A model generated the notes under the pieces. It was given only the letters and a program-made list of their open reading frames with translations. It was not told the origin of the DNA and searched no databases. The position numbers were made by a program, and so were the translations under genes. DNA of 64,000 nt from an uncultured Bacillota bacterium (GTDB lineage Bacteria > Bacillota_I > Bacilli_A > RF39 > UBA660), in NCBI GenBank assembly GCA_946630315.1, contig CAMOYT010000001.1:895-64894 (forward strand), in the 5' to 3' direction. Positions 1,647-12,302 of the stretch are shown one piece after another. Position 1 is the first letter of the stretch; every line of letters begins with the position of its first letter.

Positions 1647-2333
1647 ATGTATAATTCAGGATATTATGGAGATTATGGTGCTTATAATAGTGGAGTAGGA
1701 GCTTTATTTGGTGGAATGTTTGCTGCATTAATAATCTTTTGGATTGTTATGATGATAATTTGTATTGGATTTGCAGTAATTAAAATAATTGGTCAATGGA
1801 AAATGTTTACTAAAGCTAAAGAAGAAGGATGGAAAGCAATTATTCCAGTATATAATCAAATTACATTATGTAATATAGTAGGAATTACTCCTTGGTGGAT
1901 TTTAATTGTATTTTGTCTTTCACTATTATCAATGATTCCTTTCTTAGGAATAATATTTAGTTTAGTAGAAATGGCTGCTGCAGTTTACTTTGTTATTATA
2001 CTTAATGTTAGTGTAGCAAGAAGTTATGGTAAAAGTGATACTTTTGCAGTAGGTCTAATTTTACTTTCACCAGTTTTCTATTTTATACTTGGTATTAGTA
2101 AAACAGATGAATTTGTTGGAGCTAAACCTATGGATGATCCTGTATGGGAATGGTTAAAGAAAACATTTAATGGTGGAACTGGTGCTAGTACACCTGCAGC
2201 TAATACTACTATTGCAAGTGAGGCAAAAGTAGAAGAGGTTAAGACAGTTAAATGTTCTGAATGTGGAGCAGATGTTCCAGAAAAGACAAAATTTTGTCCA
2301 GAATGTGGAAAAGAAATGAAAGGAAAGAAGTAA
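1647..2333 (+). CDS. Polytopic membrane protein with a C-terminal zinc-ribbon (CxxC...CxxC).
   Basis: Several hydrophobic helices. C-terminus has CSECGADVPEKTKFCPECG. Confidence 0.6.
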   Translation: MYNSGYYGDYGAYNSGVGALFGGMFAALIIFWIVMMIICIGFAVIKIIGQWKMFTKAKEEGWKAIIPVYNQITLCNIVGITPWWILIVFCLSLLSMIPFLGIIFSLVEMAAAVYFVIILNVSVARSYGKSDTFAVGLILLSPVFYFILGISKTDEFVGAKPMDDPVWEWLKKTFNGGTGASTPAANTTIASEAKVEEVKTVKCSECGADVPEKTKFCPECGKEMKGKK

Positions 2334-2352
2334 TCTTTCCTTTTTTCTTATA

Positions 2353-2381
2353 AAAATGCTTGAAAAATAAGTGAACATTTG
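2353..2381 (+). promoter_or_regulatory. Sigma-A type promoter (TTGAAA-17-TATAAT, extended -10 TGTTATAAT) for tRNA-Arg.
   Basis: ttgaaaaataagtgaacatttgttataat. It is near-identical to the rpsU promoter at 18371-18399. Confidence 0.6.
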
Positions 2382-2408
2382 TTATAATTCTATTTGTCAG
2401 CAAGTTAT

Positions 2409-2485
2409 GTCTGCGTAGCTCAGCTGGATAGAGCAATCGCCTTCTAAGCGATCGGTCAGGCGTTCGAGTCGCCTCGCGGACACCA
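2409..2485 (+). tRNA. tRNA-Arg (anticodon TCT).
   Basis: Cloverleaf by eye. Acceptor GTCTGCG/CGCGGAC, D-arm GCTC..GAGC, anticodon stem ATCGC/GCGAT with loop CTTCTAA, T-arm AGGCG-TTCGAGT-CGCCT, 3' CCA encoded. Confidence 0.85.
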
Positions 2486-2490
2486 TTATG

Positions 2491-2520
2491 TAAGAAAAGA
2501 CACTTAGTGTCTTTTTTTGT
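2491..2520 (+). terminator. Rho-independent terminator after tRNA-Arg.
   Basis: aagacacttagtgtctt hairpin followed by a T-run. Confidence 0.7.
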
Positions 2521-2585
2521 GTGTAAAGTAGCTAGTAAAAATTATATTATTTAGTAATTATCATGTTATAATATGTTTAGGATAG

Positions 2586-3458
2586 GTGATTAATATGAAT
2601 GGTATTAAAAATTTACATGTATTTAAAGAAAAAATTGTTCCAATAGCACTTGCTGCTACTCTTTCATTATCTTTATCAGCTTGTGGTGGTAAAGTAGAGA
2701 TGCAATCTGTTGATATGGGTGATTTAATGGCTATAGAAGAAGTTCAAGGAGCAACTATCATTGATGATATGATTGCTAGAGGTGAATTACAATATGATGA
2801 GGATTTAAATATTATACAAGCCGCTGATCAATTAGATAGATATATGAGAATAGTTGAGATGACAGATGGTATTGATTTTACTGGAGTAGATTCATTAGAA
2901 CCATTAAGTGATGAAGCATATCAACAAACTCTTAATATGAGTAAAGAAGAAATAGAAGCATTAATTGAACTTTCTAAATATAAAGGTGATGATGTAGTTG
3001 CACTTGAAGCTAAATTGACTGCTTTAAAAAAATTAAACTATTTACATAATTATTGTAGAGATTGGGTTTATAGTAATGGTGATAATATTTGTACAAGAAT
3101 TATGATTGTTGCGGTTAAAGGTAGTGTTGCCGATGAATTTGATAGAACTGATTTTGCTGGTATTACAATTCCTGAAAGACATAATTTTGGAGGAGAGCCT
3201 GATTCTTATTCAGTTAAAGTTGATGGTGAGGTATACATAGTACCAACAGGTGAAGGAGAAATTTGGAATACAATCAATTATATTTATGAATTACAAAGTG
3301 CAGATTTAAGTGATGGTGATCAAGAAAATAGATTTGCTACTTACGATAAAGCTATTAATTATGCTAAAACAACAATTGCTGCTGGAAGTAATGTTAAGAA
3401 CAATAAATTAGTAGCTCAATATGATGCTGATTATATAGAAGGAAATTTTGTTAGATAA
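2586..3458 (+). CDS. Lipoprotein of unknown function.
   Basis: Signal peptide with lipobox LSAC. 290 aa with an acidic mature region. Confidence 0.6.
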   Translation: MINMNGIKNLHVFKEKIVPIALAATLSLSLSACGGKVEMQSVDMGDLMAIEEVQGATIIDDMIARGELQYDEDLNIIQAADQLDRYMRIVEMTDGIDFTGVDSLEPLSDEAYQQTLNMSKEEIEALIELSKYKGDDVVALEAKLTALKKLNYLHNYCRDWVYSNGDNICTRIMIVAVKGSVADEFDRTDFAGITIPERHNFGGEPDSYSVKVDGEVYIVPTGEGEIWNTINYIYELQSADLSDGDQENRFATYDKAINYAKTTIAAGSNVKNNKLVAQYDADYIEGNFVR

Positions 3459-3527
3459 TTTCCTTTTTTTTGTGATTATTTTTAAATTATTGCGAATAAT
3501 ATAATAGGAAGTGATAAGAATAGTTAC

Positions 3528-5585
3528 ATGAAAGTTGTTTTGCAAGATGGAATTAAAGACTGTGGTATTTGTTCTTTACTAAGTATTATTCGATTTTATG
3601 GGGGAGATGTATCGAAGGAGTATTTAAGAGAAATTACTAATACTACAAAAGATGGAGTTTCTTTTTATCAATTAATAGAAGCTAGTAAATTGCTTGGATT
3701 GGATGCTATCGGCATGAATGGAGATATAACGAAAATACAAGAAAATAACTTACCTTGCATAGCACATATTATTGTAAACAAAAATTATAAGCATTTTGTA
3801 GTTATATATAAAATAGATAATAAGAAAAAGTTAGTTACACTTATGGATCCTGCTAAAGGTAAAAAAGTTATTTCTTTTAGTGAATTTAATTTACTTAGTA
3901 GTGGTAATTTTATTTTCTTTACAAAAGTTAAAAATTTACCAATACTAAAAAAAAGAAATATTATTTTTAAACAAGTTAATAAGTTTATAAAAAAATATAG
4001 ATTAATATTGTCATTACTCATACTTCTAATTATTAATTATTTCGTTTTGAATATCATCATATCTTTTTACTTTAAATATATCTTAACTTTCTCTATCAAT
4101 TATAATATTACGGATAATATTTATTTTATAAGTAGTATTATACTTGTTTTATATATATTAAGTAGTGTAATTAATTTAATTAAAAATAAAATAACTAATA
4201 AGTTATTTTTAATATTTGATTCTATCTTAACAACTAATACTTTCAAACAAATCTTATTACTTCCATATCTATTTTATAAAAATAGAACAAGTGGAGAAGT
4301 ACTTGCTAGAATAAGAGATTTAAATATAGTAAAGAATTATTTAATAAAAGTATTTTTATCAATATTTGATTTTATAAGCATTATTATTTTTTCTATATTA
4401 ATTTTCTCAATAAATAAGTATTTTGCTGTTATTATTATATTCTTTTCTATTGTATTGTTGATAATAATGTTTTTATTTAATAAGAGAAAAACTATTCTTA
4501 TTAAAAGAATAAAATCAGTAGAAGATTTAGTTAATAGTCACTTGATAGAAGCCGTAACATCAGTTGAGACTATTAAGGGAAGTCATCTAGAGAAAAGATA
4601 TATAGATACTTTTTTGTTAAAATATAACTCTTTATTAGATAGACAATTAAAGTATATTAATTTAGTAGAAATAATGGATTTTATTAAGACTAATGTTCAT
4701 TCTATATTAATAGTAGCTTTATATAGTATAGGAGGTATTTATATTATTAAAGGTACAATGAATATTAGTAGTATTATAATTCTTCAATCTTTTTTACAGT
4801 ATTATTATGACTCCTTTCAAAATATTATTAGTATCATTAATGATTATTCCGAATATAAAATAGTAAAAGAGAGAGTAGAAGAATTGTTTTTAATAAAAGA
4901 AGAGTCTTTTGTTGGTAACTATTTTTATTTGTCATATAAATTATTAGGTAATATTGAGATTAGTAATTTAAATTATAAGATTAGTAGTAAGAATATTTTT
5001 TCTAATCTGAATATAAATATAAAGTATGGTGAACATCTATTGATTAGTGGAGAGAGTGGATGTGGTAAATCTACTTTGATGAAGATGATTATGAGATATA
5101 TTGAAGTACCATATGGAATTATTAAAATTGATGGGATAGATATTAATCATTATCATTTAGAAAATATTAGAAAAAATATTACTTATGTTACTAGCTCTGA
5201 GTATTTATTTACTGATACTATTAGAAATAATATTATTTTAAATAATAATATTTTAGAAGAAGAATTTTTAAAAATATGTAAGATTTGTATGGTAGATGAA
5301 ATATGTAGTTCATATGAAGATTTAATTGAAGAGAATGGCTTTAATTTTAGTAGTGGAGAGAGACAAAGAATTATTTTAGCAAGATCTCTTGTTCGTAATA
5401 GTAATATTTATATATTTGATGAAGCACTTGGTCAAATAGATATTACTAAAGAAAAGAAGATATTAACTAGTATTTTTGATTATCTAAAAGGAAAGACTAT
5501 TATTGTTATTAGTCATAGATTTAATAATAAGAAATTATTTGATCGAGTAGTCAAACTAAGTGAGGGTAGAATAATTGATACTTAA
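3528..5585 (+). CDS. Bacteriocin-processing/export ABC transporter with an N-terminal C39 peptidase domain (ComA/LagD-like).
   Basis: N-terminal QDGIKDCGICSL (C39 catalytic Cys). ~6 TM helices. Walker A GESGCGKST, signature FSSGERQR, Walker B IYIFDEA, H-loop ISHR. Extremely Ile/Asn/Lys-rich and lower GC than neighbours. Confidence 0.85.
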   Translation: MKVVLQDGIKDCGICSLLSIIRFYGGDVSKEYLREITNTTKDGVSFYQLIEASKLLGLDAIGMNGDITKIQENNLPCIAHIIVNKNYKHFVVIYKIDNKKKLVTLMDPAKGKKVISFSEFNLLSSGNFIFFTKVKNLPILKKRNIIFKQVNKFIKKYRLILSLLILLIINYFVLNIIISFYFKYILTFSINYNITDNIYFISSIILVLYILSSVINLIKNKITNKLFLIFDSILTTNTFKQILLLPYLFYKNRTSGEVLARIRDLNIVKNYLIKVFLSIFDFISIIIFSILIFSINKYFAVIIIFFSIVLLIIMFLFNKRKTILIKRIKSVEDLVNSHLIEAVTSVETIKGSHLEKRYIDTFLLKYNSLLDRQLKYINLVEIMDFIKTNVHSILIVALYSIGGIYIIKGTMNISSIIILQSFLQYYYDSFQNIISIINDYSEYKIVKERVEELFLIKEESFVGNYFYLSYKLLGNIEISNLNYKISSKNIFSNLNINIKYGEHLLISGESGCGKSTLMKMIMRYIEVPYGIIKIDGIDINHYHLENIRKNITYVTSSEYLFTDTIRNNIILNNNILEEEFLKICKICMVDEICSSYEDLIEENGFNFSSGERQRIILARSLVRNSNIYIFDEALGQIDITKEKKILTSIFDYLKGKTIIVISHRFNNKKLFDRVVKLSEGRIIDT

Positions 5586-5982
5586 GAACTTCGAAAAATT
5601 AAAAGTAGTTATATTTTTTAGTATTTTATTAATACTTTTTGAGATATTTTTATATTGTTTCTTTTTATCTATTAAGATTAATACTTATCATAAGTATTCA
5701 GGAATTATATTTAGTAATAAGTTAGTATATTTAATGGTTAATGATAAGGAGCTGAATGATATTTATAAGAATAAAGCATTTATTTATGATAAGAATAAAT
5801 ATAAATTAGATATTGATCATATTAATAGAAATGTCTTAAAAAGAGATGGTAAGAATATTAATCAAGTATTTATTAAATATAAGAGTGTTAATAGAGATAA
5901 TGAGGTTATAGATATTATCCTTTATAATAAAAAAATAAATGTAATAGAAATGTTTAAAATTATTTGGAAGGAGGATGTATGA
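5575..5982 (+). CDS. Small membrane-anchored accessory protein of the bacteriocin locus (truncated HlyD-like accessory or immunity protein).
   Basis: N-terminal TM helix followed by a beta-rich soluble region. Overlaps the ABC gene end and the prepeptide start. No family motif recognised. Confidence 0.4.
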   Translation: MILKNFEKLKVVIFFSILLILFEIFLYCFFLSIKINTYHKYSGIIFSNKLVYLMVNDKELNDIYKNKAFIYDKNKYKLDIDHINRNVLKRDGKNINQVFIKYKSVNRDNEVIDIILYNKKINVIEMFKIIWKEDV

Positions 5983-6131
5983 GCGAAATTTCAAATGACA
6001 AGTTAGATAAAATTAATGGAGGCATGACAACAACAGCTGCTGTATTAATTGGAGTAGCAGTAACAGCAGTTATAGTTTTTGTATCAGGTCTTATTGAAGG
6101 AATCACCAATCCTTTGAGGTGTAATGGATGA
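5979..6131 (+). CDS. Double-glycine-leader bacteriocin prepeptide 1 (50 aa; mature 35 aa). Not in the ORF track.
   Basis: MSEISNDKLDKINGG|MTTTAAVLIGVAVTAVIVFVSGLIEGITNPLRCNG. Leader fits the LS..EL..I.GG consensus. Mature peptide is hydrophobic with a GxxxG motif. RBS GGAAGGAGG upstream; start overlaps the stop of the upstream gene. Confidence 0.8.
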   Translation: MSEISNDKLDKINGGMTTTAAVLIGVAVTAVIVFVSGLIEGITNPLRCNG

Positions 6132-6301
6132 AGCAAATTGATAAAAATGTGTTAGATAATATTTATGGAGGTACTAATACTATTTCTTCAACAGTTATTA
6201 ATGCAATTACTAATTTAATAAAATTACTTAAGGATGCTGGATACTCACTAGGTAGTGGAATGCGAAGAATTGGAGAAGATAAGATGTGTCCATTGGAATA
6301 A
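6128..6301 (+). CDS. Double-glycine-leader bacteriocin prepeptide 2 (57 aa; mature 42 aa). Not in the ORF track.
   Basis: MKQIDKNVLDNIYGG|TNTISSTVINAITNLIKLLKDAGYSLGSGMRRIGEDKMCPLE. ATGA start/stop overlap with peptide 1. GxxxG motifs. Single Cys. Confidence 0.75.
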   Translation: MKQIDKNVLDNIYGGTNTISSTVINAITNLIKLLKDAGYSLGSGMRRIGEDKMCPLE

Positions 6302-6404
6302 AAAAAGCAATTTTTATAATTATTTCTATTCCTCTTTTTTATCTATTGTTAAATTTACTATTTGCTTTTGGATTTTATATTGGAAAAATACTAGGTTGTA
6401 TGTA

Positions 6405-6433
6405 AAGAGCTTTAATAGCTCTTTATTTTTTTA
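6405..6433 (+). terminator. Rho-independent terminator closing the bacteriocin operon.
   Basis: 7-bp stem AAGAGCT/AGCTCTT with loop TTAAT, followed by a U-run. Confidence 0.7.
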
Positions 6434-10789: not shown

Positions 10790-11320
10790 ATGGTTTGTTT
10801 AGGAATATTATGGAATAGTATGCAAGATTATCTTGGAGAAGCTATAGAAGATATTAGTAGTTATGGTTCTATTAAAGGAGCTTTTACAATGGAACTTAAT
10901 GATCAATATGAAAGTTTTGTTAGGGATATTTATAGCCAAGATGATATTGCAGAATGGAAAGTAGATAAGAAATTAGAGACTATGTTTAAGTGTAGTGATA
11001 ATAGAAATATTACAGTAGTTATTGTAGATGTTGATAGTAGTAAGCAAGTTTATCATCCATTAAAAAAGAGAATGGTATATGAAAATTTAGAAAAGATGAA
11101 AACTAATTTACGAAAAAAGTATAGTGAAAAAGTAGATCATTACTTCTTTGATAATGTCTTTCATATGACTGATGATGAAAGAGAATATGATGCAGATCTT
11201 GGTATTGTAAAACAATATATGGATAGAGTAGATGTAGTGCCAATTGATTTAGGAGAAGAGAAAGCTAAAGATAAAGTTTTAACATTAGGAGTTAGAAATG
11301 AAACTGAAAGAAAGAATTAG
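10790..11320 (+). CDS. Hypothetical protein. Start set at ATG 10790 after RBS GGGAGAA; the track ORF begins at 10736.
   Basis: 176 aa soluble, no motif recognised. Lies within the sugar cluster. Confidence 0.45.
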   Translation: MVCLGILWNSMQDYLGEAIEDISSYGSIKGAFTMELNDQYESFVRDIYSQDDIAEWKVDKKLETMFKCSDNRNITVVIVDVDSSKQVYHPLKKRMVYENLEKMKTNLRKKYSEKVDHYFFDNVFHMTDDEREYDADLGIVKQYMDRVDVVPIDLGEEKAKDKVLTLGVRNETERKN

Positions 11321-12302
11321 TAAAAAAGTATCTGATAGTGGATTTAATACTTTTATGTCTTTTCCTAAAAAGAATTTATTAATTGAAGTAACTAATTATT
11401 GTAATAATAGATGTATATTTTGCTACAACGACTGTATGAAAAGAGAAAGAAAATTTATTGATAAAGATTTATGTTATAGAGTATTAAGTGATGCTTATCA
11501 ATTGGGTATGAGAGAAGTTGGTTTTTATGTTACAGGAGAGCCATTACTTGATAAGAGATTAAAAGATTTTATTAAAAGAGCTAAGTTGATAGGTTATGAA
11601 TATATTTATATTACTACTAATGGTATTCTTGCTAATCTAAGTAGAGTTAAGGAATTATATGAGGCTGGTTTAAATAGTATTAAGTATAGTATTAATGCTA
11701 GTAATGAAAAAGATTATTTAATGATTCATGGTACTGATAATTTTACTAGAGTAGTTAATAATTTAGAAGAAGTTTATAACTGGAAAACGAGTAATAATAT
11801 TAATTTAAAAGTATATGTATCTTATATTATGATTGATGCTACTAATAAAAAGAGTGAGATAGATAAATTATTTAAGAATAAGTGTGATGAATATGTAGTT
11901 ATGTCTGCTATTAATCAAGGAGGATTAATACCTAGTATTTGTGAAATATCTCATGAGAAAGGAATTAATAGTTTTAAATTACCTTGTTCTTATCCCTTTA
12001 AATCAGTAGTAGTTACATGTGAAGGGTATCTTACTGGTTGTTGTATGGATTTTGAAAACTTACTTGCATATGCAGATTTAAGTAAAGAAAAGTTAGAAGA
12101 TGCTTGGAATAATAGTATTATTAGAGAACTTAGAAAAAGACAATTAGAAGGTAATGTTAATGGTACTATTTGTTCTAATTGTATTTATAATTCTTTAGAA
12201 ATACCAAATGAGATTAATACTAAGCTATGTAAATTAAAAAATAAAAATAATATATTTTGTAAAGATTTAGATAGAATAAGGAGGAGTAATGAAAGCTATT
12301 AA
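11298..12302 (+). CDS. Radical SAM enzyme with a Cys-rich C-terminal (SPASM-like) region.
   Basis: VTNYCNNRCIFCYN (CxxxCxxC). C-terminal CEGYLTGCCMDF...CSNCIYN extra cysteines. Confidence 0.75.
   Translation: MKLKERISKKVSDSGFNTFMSFPKKNLLIEVTNYCNNRCIFCYNDCMKRERKFIDKDLCYRVLSDAYQLGMREVGFYVTGEPLLDKRLKDFIKRAKLIGYEYIYITTNGILANLSRVKELYEAGLNSIKYSINASNEKDYLMIHGTDNFTRVVNNLEEVYNWKTSNNINLKVYVSYIMIDATNKKSEIDKLFKNKCDEYVVMSAINQGGLIPSICEISHEKGINSFKLPCSYPFKSVVVTCEGYLTGCCMDFENLLAYADLSKEKLEDAWNNSIIRELRKRQLEGNVNGTICSNCIYNSLEIPNEINTKLCKLKNKNNIFCKDLDRIRRSNESY

Follow-up and report, generated by a model that had tools for sequence, protein, structure and literature searches.

A conserved C39 exporter operon with two double-glycine-leader prepeptides, a candidate class IIb-type two-peptide bacteriocin locus of uncultured gut Bacilli

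The DNA analysed here, referred to as the window, is a stretch of 64,000 nucleotides from an uncultured Bacillota bacterium of the RF39 lineage (contig CAMOYT010000001.1 of GenBank assembly GCA_946630315.1), and all coordinates are window positions. It harbours five consecutive genes on the forward strand, which encode a peptidase-containing ABC transporter (PCAT), a small accessory membrane protein, two prepeptides with double-glycine (GG) leaders, which we call pep1 and pep2, and a membrane mini-protein, ORF3. An earlier note made from the sequence alone had proposed that the two prepeptides form a two-peptide bacteriocin of class IIb type.

Architecture of the peptide operon

Both small open reading frames (ORFs) described in the earlier note are present. 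The gene pep1 (5979..6131, + strand) encodes a 50-aa prepeptide composed of the GG leader MSEISNDKLDKINGG (5979..6023) and the 35-aa hydrophobic core MTTTAAVLIGVAVTAVIVFVSGLIEGITNPLRCNG (6024..6128), a transmembrane-like helix harbouring G37xxxG41, P45 and C48. The gene pep2 (6128..6301, + strand) encodes 57 aa, i.e. the GG leader MKQIDKNVLDNIYGG (6128..6172) followed by the 42-aa core TNTISSTVINAITNLIKLLKDAGYSLGSGMRRIGEDKMCPLE (6173..6298), an amphipathic helix with G38xxxG42, R46, R47 and C54. The two frames overlap in the ATGA arrangement that had been claimed, formed by the pep1 stop (TGA, 6129-6131) and the pep2 start (ATG, 6128-6130), and each mature peptide indeed contains exactly one GxxxG motif and one cysteine. 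A Shine-Dalgarno (SD) sequence GGAGG lies 4 nt 5' of the pep1 ATG, and the SD of pep2 (GAGGTG, 6115-6120) is embedded in the L-R-C codons of pep1.

The proposed fit to the GG-leader consensus holds for both prepeptides. The leaders are 15 residues long, with hydrophobic residues at -4, -7, -12 and -15 and glycines at -2/-1, and this register is kept in every species examined (>20). Using a register-aware pattern (hydrophobic at -12, -7 and -4, then x-G-G) on 458 small-ORF candidates, we recovered pep1 and pep2 as the only GG-leader ORFs of the window, compared with 0.28 matches per window in shuffled sequence. Proteins identical to pep1 and pep2 have been called independently in rumen and gut metagenome assemblies. 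Because relatives are annotated as Tenericutes or Mycoplasmatota, the genetic code was checked. Code 4, in which TGA encodes Trp and pep1 would be read past its TGA, is ruled out by the long ORFs of the window, in which TGG is found 113 times in frame and TGA not once, and of which 7 of 58 end in TGA. Thus, TGA is a stop and pep1 truly ends there.

The two cores have the following physicochemical profiles: pep1 is a transmembrane-type helix (grand average of hydropathy, GRAVY, 1.33; isoelectric point, pI, 5.75; net charge 0), and pep2 has a GRAVY of about 0, a pI of 7.83, a net charge of +1 and an amphipathic segment with a hydrophobic moment (muH) of 0.52. Computed monoisotopic masses of the mature, unmodified peptides are 3499.9 Da for pep1 and 4522.4 Da for pep2; a disulfide-bonded heterodimer would have 8020.259 Da. 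In the 22-23 loci tabulated the net charge is mostly 0; pep1 spans -2 to +1 and pep2 0 to +2, with one value of +4 (L043; L-numbers, L007-L050, denote loci of relatives, P-numbers pep2-family proteins from the exhaustive search described below). An AlphaFold2 (AF2) model of pep2 suggests that residues 21-36 are helical and that a tail rich in Gly and Arg comes after them; as its confidence is low (predicted local distance difference test score, pLDDT, 59), it was used for the helix position alone.

In line with the gene order reported before, pep1 and pep2 lie directly 3' of a C39-ABC transporter gene and a small membrane accessory gene. The transporter (3528..5585, + strand, 685 aa) comprises C39 peptidase, ABC transmembrane and ATPase domains, with Pfam matches to PF03412 (Peptidase_C39, E 1.5e-30), PF00664 (ABC_membrane) and PF00005 (ABC_tran). 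Its catalytic C39 residues Q6, C12, H89 and D105 stay unchanged throughout a set of 20 orthologues. The best NCBIfam match, TIGR01193, scores 313.8 bits and remains below the cutoff of 523.85; despite this, domain content and relatives in the PDB clearly identify the protein as a PCAT. Both PCAT1 of Clostridium thermocellum (4RY2, E 5e-77) and ComA of Streptococcus (8HF4, E 7e-69) are homologous to it over the full length and share the three domains and the catalytic residues. Unlike in these systems, the partner of the window PCAT is a 135-aa single-pass protein and not an adaptor of ComB/HlyD size.

This accessory protein (5575..5982, + strand) consists of an N-terminal transmembrane helix and a small, mostly beta domain. 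Its gene starts at a TTG that overlaps the PCAT stop by 11 nt and ends in a TGA that overlaps the pep1 ATG, again as ATGA (5979-5982), and it is kept in all loci except L049/L050. Apparent N-terminal truncations in L019 and L024 are artefacts of start-codon calling, the frame being open over the full length. AF2 modelling from a shallow alignment predicts the transmembrane helix and a small beta-rich domain (best model pLDDT 85.8, the other four 58-71). A Foldseek search with this model gave no significant match; among the top 50 entries about a dozen are beta-barrels of membrane-fusion proteins (MexA, MacA, AcrA, Spr0693, ZneB) with template-modelling scores of 0.30-0.37, only a hint that the accessory protein might be a miniature membrane-fusion protein. 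On the sequence level, it aligns with NF045999 (MAG1140 family) over positions 5-124 of 126 with 15.5 bits (E 0.015, cutoff 35). NF045999 is also the sole family that recurs among its orthologues (7 of 16 weak matches, best E 2e-4), which suggests a remote homology to the MAG1140 family below the cutoff for membership. Correspondingly, PCAT scores 276.7 bits against NF045998 (Mbov_0121 family; curated cutoff 500). The Mycoplasma Mbov_0121/MAG1140 pair likewise consists of a C39-ABC transporter beside a small protein of ~130 aa, whereas the hosts studied here keep sporulation genes and a Bacillus-like synteny. Our literature search on this pair returned nothing functional.

Contrary to the statement that no obvious immunity gene is visible, a conserved membrane ORF overlaps the end of pep2 and presents an obvious candidate. 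ORF3 (6286..6405, + strand; MSIGIKKAIFIIISIPLFYLLLNLLFAFGFYIGKILGCM) encodes a 39-aa single-pass membrane mini-protein. Its GTG start combines the last base of the pep2 Met53 codon with bases 1 and 2 of the Cys54 codon, and its SD (GGAGAAG, 6271-6277) is embedded in the I-G-E codons of pep2. In L016, L019 and L024, where pep2 is 66-84% identical, ORF3 is found in the same frame, at the same start position (TTG or ATG) and with exactly 39 codons, free of indels and stops at ~67% nucleotide identity. Its pN/pS, the ratio of nonsynonymous to synonymous change, is 0.26-0.60. An ORF with the same embedded start position occurs in L029, L030, L031, L033, L034, L036, L039 and L040, and further versions exist in L043, L047 and L048, which are far more remote; the L043 and L047 copies had been called by gene callers. 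All versions, 31-59 aa long across loci, share a basic N-terminus, one transmembrane helix and the motif (F/Y)x(I/L)G.(Y/F).G. Judged by this pattern of conservation, ORF3 is a real gene. It is absent from L022, L026-28, L032, L035, L037, L038, L041, L042 and L049.

The earlier note had also placed a strong terminator after the peptide genes. Such a terminator exists (6402..6426, + strand, 10-bp stem and T-run), located ~100 nt past the pep2 stop and directly behind ORF3; its stem starts in the ORF3 stop codon. It is the only convincing one of 3 sites found in a search of the region, where 0.3 were expected, and in L016, L019 and L024 ORF3 is likewise followed by a terminator hairpin, whose stem bases differ. 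The chained overlaps together with the single terminator imply that PCAT, accessory protein, pep1, pep2 and ORF3 are five translationally chained genes.

Conservation of the peptide family and its genomic setting

Word-indexed searches returned only 8 relatives of pep2 and 5 of pep1, none of them with a name. Scanning species-representative genomes added 17 further loci, whose host metagenome-assembled genomes (MAGs) are labelled as uncultured Bacilli, Tenericutes, Mycoplasmatota, Erysipelotrichaceae or Candidatus Faecimonas; the titles of the MAGs point to varied animal and human guts, among them rabbit, goat, chicken and Hadza human. An exhaustive profile search with pep2 yielded 158 clusters (50% identity) at E<=1e-3, nearly all of 50-60 aa and aligned over the full length. 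The design recurs, with transporter and peptide genes intact together, in >25 lineages of uncultured low-GC gut Bacilli. No family member that we looked up carries a name, tblastn against PLSDB gave no plasmid copy, and we found no paper containing the core motifs; the taxa go without mention in the main text of the IIBacFinder paper. Neither solved structures nor curated families were found for the pep1 and pep2 cores.

Among 80 diverse pep2 members, G14, G15, G38, R46, R47 and C54 are invariant and G42 is kept in at least 90%, and among 18 pep1 sequences G14, G15, G37, G41, P45 and C48 are invariant. The pN/pS values are 0.10-0.20 for pep1 and 0.12-0.16 for pep2, at synonymous divergence (pS) of 0.4-0.8, indicating that both genes are under strong purifying selection. 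Mean identities between clades amount to 0.67-0.71 for the pep2 core, 0.44-0.57 for the pep1 core, 0.42-0.54 for PCAT, 0.33-0.54 for the leaders and about 0.26 for the accessory protein, compared with 0.64-0.72 for YqeY, YbeY and RecO. Part of the C-terminal conservation of both peptides could reflect dual coding, as conserved residues encode the downstream SDs. However, the cysteine stays invariant in L043 and L047, lineages with separate intergenic SDs.

Several aberrant variants were noted in the metagenomic sequences. These include read-through fusions of pep1 and pep2 (P0054, P0117), a frameshift fusion of pep2 and ORF3 (P0068), C-terminal frameshifts of pep2 (P0062, P0128) and internal deletions (P0122, P0140), which suggests occasional natural decay of the locus, or sequencing errors. 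Similarly, PCAT is represented in two sequencing runs of one species by a 709-aa ORF in one case and by ORFs of 333 and 380 aa in the other (L022:4223-6351 versus L023:4224-6353), reflecting either a frameshifted pseudogene variant or an assembly error.

The order PCAT, accessory gene, pep1, pep2 holds in every intact locus and persists where PCAT is only 34-54% identical. In clades A-C the operon is flanked on the 5' side by an adh_short / Met-gamma-lyase / DUF5684 (/ SpoIIIAH / GerM) block and on the 3' side by rpsU-yqeY-(yqfC-yqfD)-vanZ-ybeY-dgkA-cdd-era-recO, with variable insertions occurring solely between pep2/ORF3 and rpsU. In L043, L048 and L049 the cassette is located directly 5' of rpsU, though PCAT is only 34% and pep2 30-41% identical, and in L047 it adjoins obg. 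The 5' genes of distant clades encode, according to Pfam, HD-domain, GerM, SpoIIIAH and tRNA-binding proteins, and neither histidine kinases nor response regulators nor LytTR proteins. In L049/L050 (2741-5174) PCAT is followed by pep1, pep2 and rpsU, lacking accessory gene and ORF3; the minimal conserved core therefore consists of PCAT and the two peptides.

In two loci the operon is split (L007:1-1541 and L029:~2050-3727). Here pep1 is cut to its last ~10 codons (...ITNPERCNG, then stop; equivalent to window ~6099-6131) and borders on the 3' end of a large gene for a serine recombinase with Resolvase, Recombinase and Zn_ribbon_recom domains (PHROG 95 integrase, E 2e-123). The two recombinases are near-identical at their C-termini though the lineages are divergent, one having a pep2 100% identical to that of the window and the other, a goat-jejunum MAG, a pep2 57% identical. 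From these junctions, an integrative element appears to use pep1 as its attachment site, around codons 40-42 (GGnATTACnAATCC). No relative of the recombinase element was found in IMG/VR.

A second kind of insertion is seen downstream of ORF3. In the window, a strain-specific island of ~7.6 kb (6626..~14270) separates the peptide operon from the conserved downstream genes. It encodes a protein resembling CTP_transf_3 CMP-sugar transferases, a polysaccharide deacetylase, NeuB, a UDP-GlcNAc 2-epimerase-like protein, a radical-SAM/SPASM protein, a NUDIX protein and unknowns, and looks like a pathway for a nonulosonic (sialic-like) acid. The orthologous site holds other cargo in L016 (DUF4176 and others) and nothing in L019 and L024, and this variability identifies the site as an insertion hotspot. 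The flanks of L026-L042 contain sporulation genes in Bacillus-like order (SpoIIIAH-like, GerM, YqfD, YabP/YqfC; e.g. L038:2342-2950, L032:2453-3412, L031:11360-12562, L032:9974-10294) in MAGs labelled Tenericutes/Mycoplasmatota, labels that are probably misleading about the cell biology of these organisms. The clade of the window itself lacks yqfC and yqfD at this position.

Directly 5' of PCAT lies a gene for a putative lipoprotein (2595..3458, + strand; 287 aa from the ATG at 2595) with the lipobox LSLSAC. It is conserved at this position in the window's own clade only (64-67% identity) and weakly in L022 (28%), and matches no Pfam or NCBIfam family. A TGnTATAAT box (2564-2572) and an SD precede it, and a weak hairpin with a T-run follows it, as does a TATAAT box at 3500-3505, all read from the sequence. 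The lipoprotein gene is possibly co-transcribed with the operon; its membership in the system is uncertain. Further upstream, between the terminator of a DUF5684/zinc-ribbon gene and the lipoprotein gene, a tRNA-Arg(TCT) is encoded (2409..2485, + strand), preceded by a near-consensus promoter (TTGAAA-17-TATAAT with TG, 2360-2388) and followed by a terminator-like hairpin at ~2493-2520. This strong promoter-like site most likely serves the tRNA. In a search for RNA elements the tRNA-Arg was the only one in the operon leader, with no riboswitch or other leader element.

Comparison with class IIb bacteriocins and alternative readings

Class IIb bacteriocins are defined by adjacent genes for two peptides whose GG leaders span 15-30 residues, by an ABC transporter of their own with an accessory protein, by an immunity gene within the operon and by GxxxG motifs (PMC2850506). 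The locus shows this layout in nearly every respect. The genes pep1 and pep2 are on the same strand and paired in all intact loci (the exceptions are L007 and L029, where pep1 is truncated), both leaders measure 15 residues, and each peptide has one GxxxG motif at a fixed position. PCAT has invariant catalytic residues for the predicted leader cleavage, and the accessory gene overlaps its neighbours on both sides. ORF3 is a small membrane protein in the right place for immunity, lacking similarity to known immunity proteins and missing in about half of the species.

The closest comparison is with operons of the lactococcin G type (lagA-lagB-immunity-ABC-accessory; PMC2850506). Both contain two prepeptide genes, a C39-ABC exporter, an accessory gene and a small membrane protein, and in both the 15-residue GG leaders precede mature peptides of 35-42 aa that each have GxxxG, a transmembrane-like peptide being partnered by an amphipathic one. 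In contrast, the cores have no detectable similarity, matches to NF038034 and NF038035 being weak and driven by the leader. The window locus is exporter-first, its accessory protein has only 135 aa and its putative immunity ORF overlaps the end of pep2. Its peptides are neutral rather than strongly cationic, with one invariant C-terminal cysteine each, and the locus is chromosomal, syntenic and slow-evolving, not mobile and variable. With lactobin A/cerein 7B, pep1 shares a Gly/Ala-rich hydrophobic segment behind the GG leader, but the conserved tail G-x3-G-x3-P-x2-C of pep1 is not part of the corresponding model, TIGR03949. Against this model pep1 of the window scores 14.5 bits (cutoff 21.5), 15 of 18 pep1 homologues match, with relatives at 17-29 bits and two of eight individually rescored above the cutoff, and leaderless pep1 cores give no match. 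PF10439 (Bacteriocin_IIc) aligns with residues 1-31 of pep1 only, at 21.2 bits (gathering threshold 27.1); it does not match pep2 of the window, while 22 of 80 pep2-family members give matches that stay below the threshold.

Since the features of class IIb that can be read from a sequence are found at the locus, plausibly including immunity, a two-peptide bacteriocin is the most likely mechanism. On balance we consider it somewhat likelier true than false that the five-gene operon encodes a class IIb-type two-peptide bacteriocin with ORF3 as immunity protein. The C39 domain of PCAT would recognise both prepeptides via their 15-residue amphipathic GG leaders, cleave after Gly-Gly and export the cores, helped by the membrane-anchored accessory protein. 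Of this, processing and export of both peptides by PCAT is far better founded and very probable. The start/stop overlaps would favour roughly equimolar synthesis of pep1 and pep2. Outside the cell, the 35-aa transmembrane-type pep1 and the 42-aa amphipathic pep2 may associate in a membrane through their GxxxG motifs, which would bring the invariant C-terminal cysteines close to each other and might permit an inter-peptide disulfide. The pair could then act as a class IIb-type bacteriocin on a conserved membrane target of competitors, and ORF3, translated by coupling from the end of pep2, would protect the producer.

While gene pair, leaders, exporter, accessory protein and GxxxG motifs bear out what the earlier note proposed, a number of features are atypical and weigh against a bacteriocin. 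Class IIb peptides are typically cationic, a usual property rather than a strict criterion, and the mature peptides of the window are about neutral (0 and +1), as is most of the family. With every bacteriocin model, the window peptides score less than the curated cutoff. The invariant cysteine of each peptide is one of five features that we take as reasons for caution, the others being the neutral charge, the housekeeping-like rate of the pep2 core, the vertical inheritance in synteny and the frequent absence of ORF3. The pep2 core is as conserved as YqeY, YbeY and RecO, far above its own transporter, and has no match in Pfam, NCBIfam or PDB sequences apart from weak hits to generic GG-leader models. 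ORF3 is missing from roughly every second species despite intact peptides, matches no Pfam model and resembles no known immunity family. Instead of forming a patchy accessory island, the cassette has been passed on vertically over deep divergence in a single place upstream of rpsU-yqeY. Finally, no gene for a histidine kinase, response regulator, LytTR protein or induction peptide was found nearby in >25 loci (+/-5-8 kb).

These observations support, as the foremost rival, an explanation with the same export and no weapon, in which the pair would be a heterodimer, perhaps Cys-linked, that inserts into the membrane or envelope of the producer or acts between siblings and has a lineage-wide physiological role, e.g. 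in envelope or membrane function or in kin signalling, with ORF3 as an optional third membrane subunit or modulator. The housekeeping rate of the pep2 core, the rpsU-yqeY synteny that is fixed even where PCAT is only 34% identical, the neutral charge, the invariant cysteines and the lack of regulation or induction genes at the loci all argue for it, as do the fact that about half of the species dispense with ORF3, and L049/L050 with the accessory protein, and the weak resemblance of the accessory protein to the uncharacterised MAG1140 family, the partner of a Mycoplasma C39-ABC transporter. We nevertheless regard it as unlikely, if to be taken seriously. We found no precedent for a GG-leader peptide pair in such a role, and the layout, including the small membrane ORF right behind the structural genes, is that of a textbook bacteriocin. 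The decay seen in some genomes (pep1 split in L007 and L029, frameshifts in P0062, P0068 and P0128, PCAT split in L022) is more typical of dispensable genes. Moreover, bacteriocins that target a receptor can also be well conserved.

Two further explanations fare far worse. The full-length match of PCAT to ComA could point to a ComAB-like exporter of quorum-sensing or competence pheromones of the ComC/BlpC kind, and a few family members weakly match the ComC, BlpC and EntF induction-factor models. These matches are made through the leaders and vanish once the leader is removed, the mature peptides are 35-42 aa long and form strongly hydrophobic or amphipathic helices of membrane type, and within +/-5-8 kb of the >25 loci there is no histidine kinase/response regulator, the neighbours being housekeeping and sporulation genes, so that a pheromone system is highly improbable. 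The peptides might instead be precursors of ribosomally synthesized and post-translationally modified peptides (RiPPs), in which the one invariant cysteine per core would receive a thioether, a glycosylation or a similar modification from unlinked enzymes, for instance the radical-SAM/SPASM protein encoded 5 kb downstream in the window (11298..12302). This gene sits in the strain-specific sugar island and is absent from L016, L019, L024 and all distant loci, where the peptides are unchanged, and in none of the loci is the cassette accompanied by a modification enzyme. We therefore rejected a link of the peptides to the radical-SAM/SPASM and sugar genes, and give a RiPP pathway very little credence. 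That pep1 and pep2 are chance ORFs or a decaying remnant, as their small size, their absence from the ORF track and some frameshifted or interrupted metagenomic variants might suggest, is effectively refuted by purifying selection (pN/pS 0.10-0.20 at near-saturated synonymous divergence), motifs invariant across 80 diverse sequences, 158 clusters, and the co-occurrence of intact transporter and peptide genes in >25 lineages.

Implications for uncultured low-GC Bacilli

A PCAT-exported two-peptide locus is in itself a known kind of system. The three small-protein families, the mini-ORF with its embedded start, the small accessory protein and the evolutionary behaviour of the locus are not described in the sources searched. 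The three families defined here (pep1, pep2 and ORF3), previously unnamed, occur widely among the uncultured low-GC Bacilli that live in the gut and rumen of humans and livestock. The locus also illustrates how gene finders miss functionally linked mini-ORFs with starts embedded in the preceding gene.

A broader proposal can be made, which we put forward tentatively and hold to be unlikely. Rather than an ordinary weapon at strain level, the locus would be an ancient lineage-core cassette, inherited vertically since before the gut Bacilli clades diverged, in which PCAT and two neutral peptides encoded immediately upstream of rpsU provide a heterodimer based on GxxxG motifs and cysteines (through a bond or a metal) with a conserved function. 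Most lineages would have the accessory protein as part of it, and about one in two the overlapping mini-ORF; the cassette may be akin to the mycoplasma C39-ABC/MAG1140 pair. Its function could be either a membrane or signalling role towards self or kin, or that of a bacteriocin locked onto an invariant receptor. If true, the peptides of the cassette would make up a functional class of GG-leader peptides that is new.

There is hardly any knowledge of the interbacterial chemistry of these Bacilli. If pep1 and pep2 are bacteriocins, they would provide a two-peptide scaffold (35 + 42 aa) from an uncultured group that is new, unmodified and accessible to synthesis. If they are not, their conservation at a housekeeping-like level and the fixed place beside rpsU would point to a so far unrecognised conserved role of PCAT-exported peptides, which may extend to the mycoplasma C39-ABC/MAG1140 pair.

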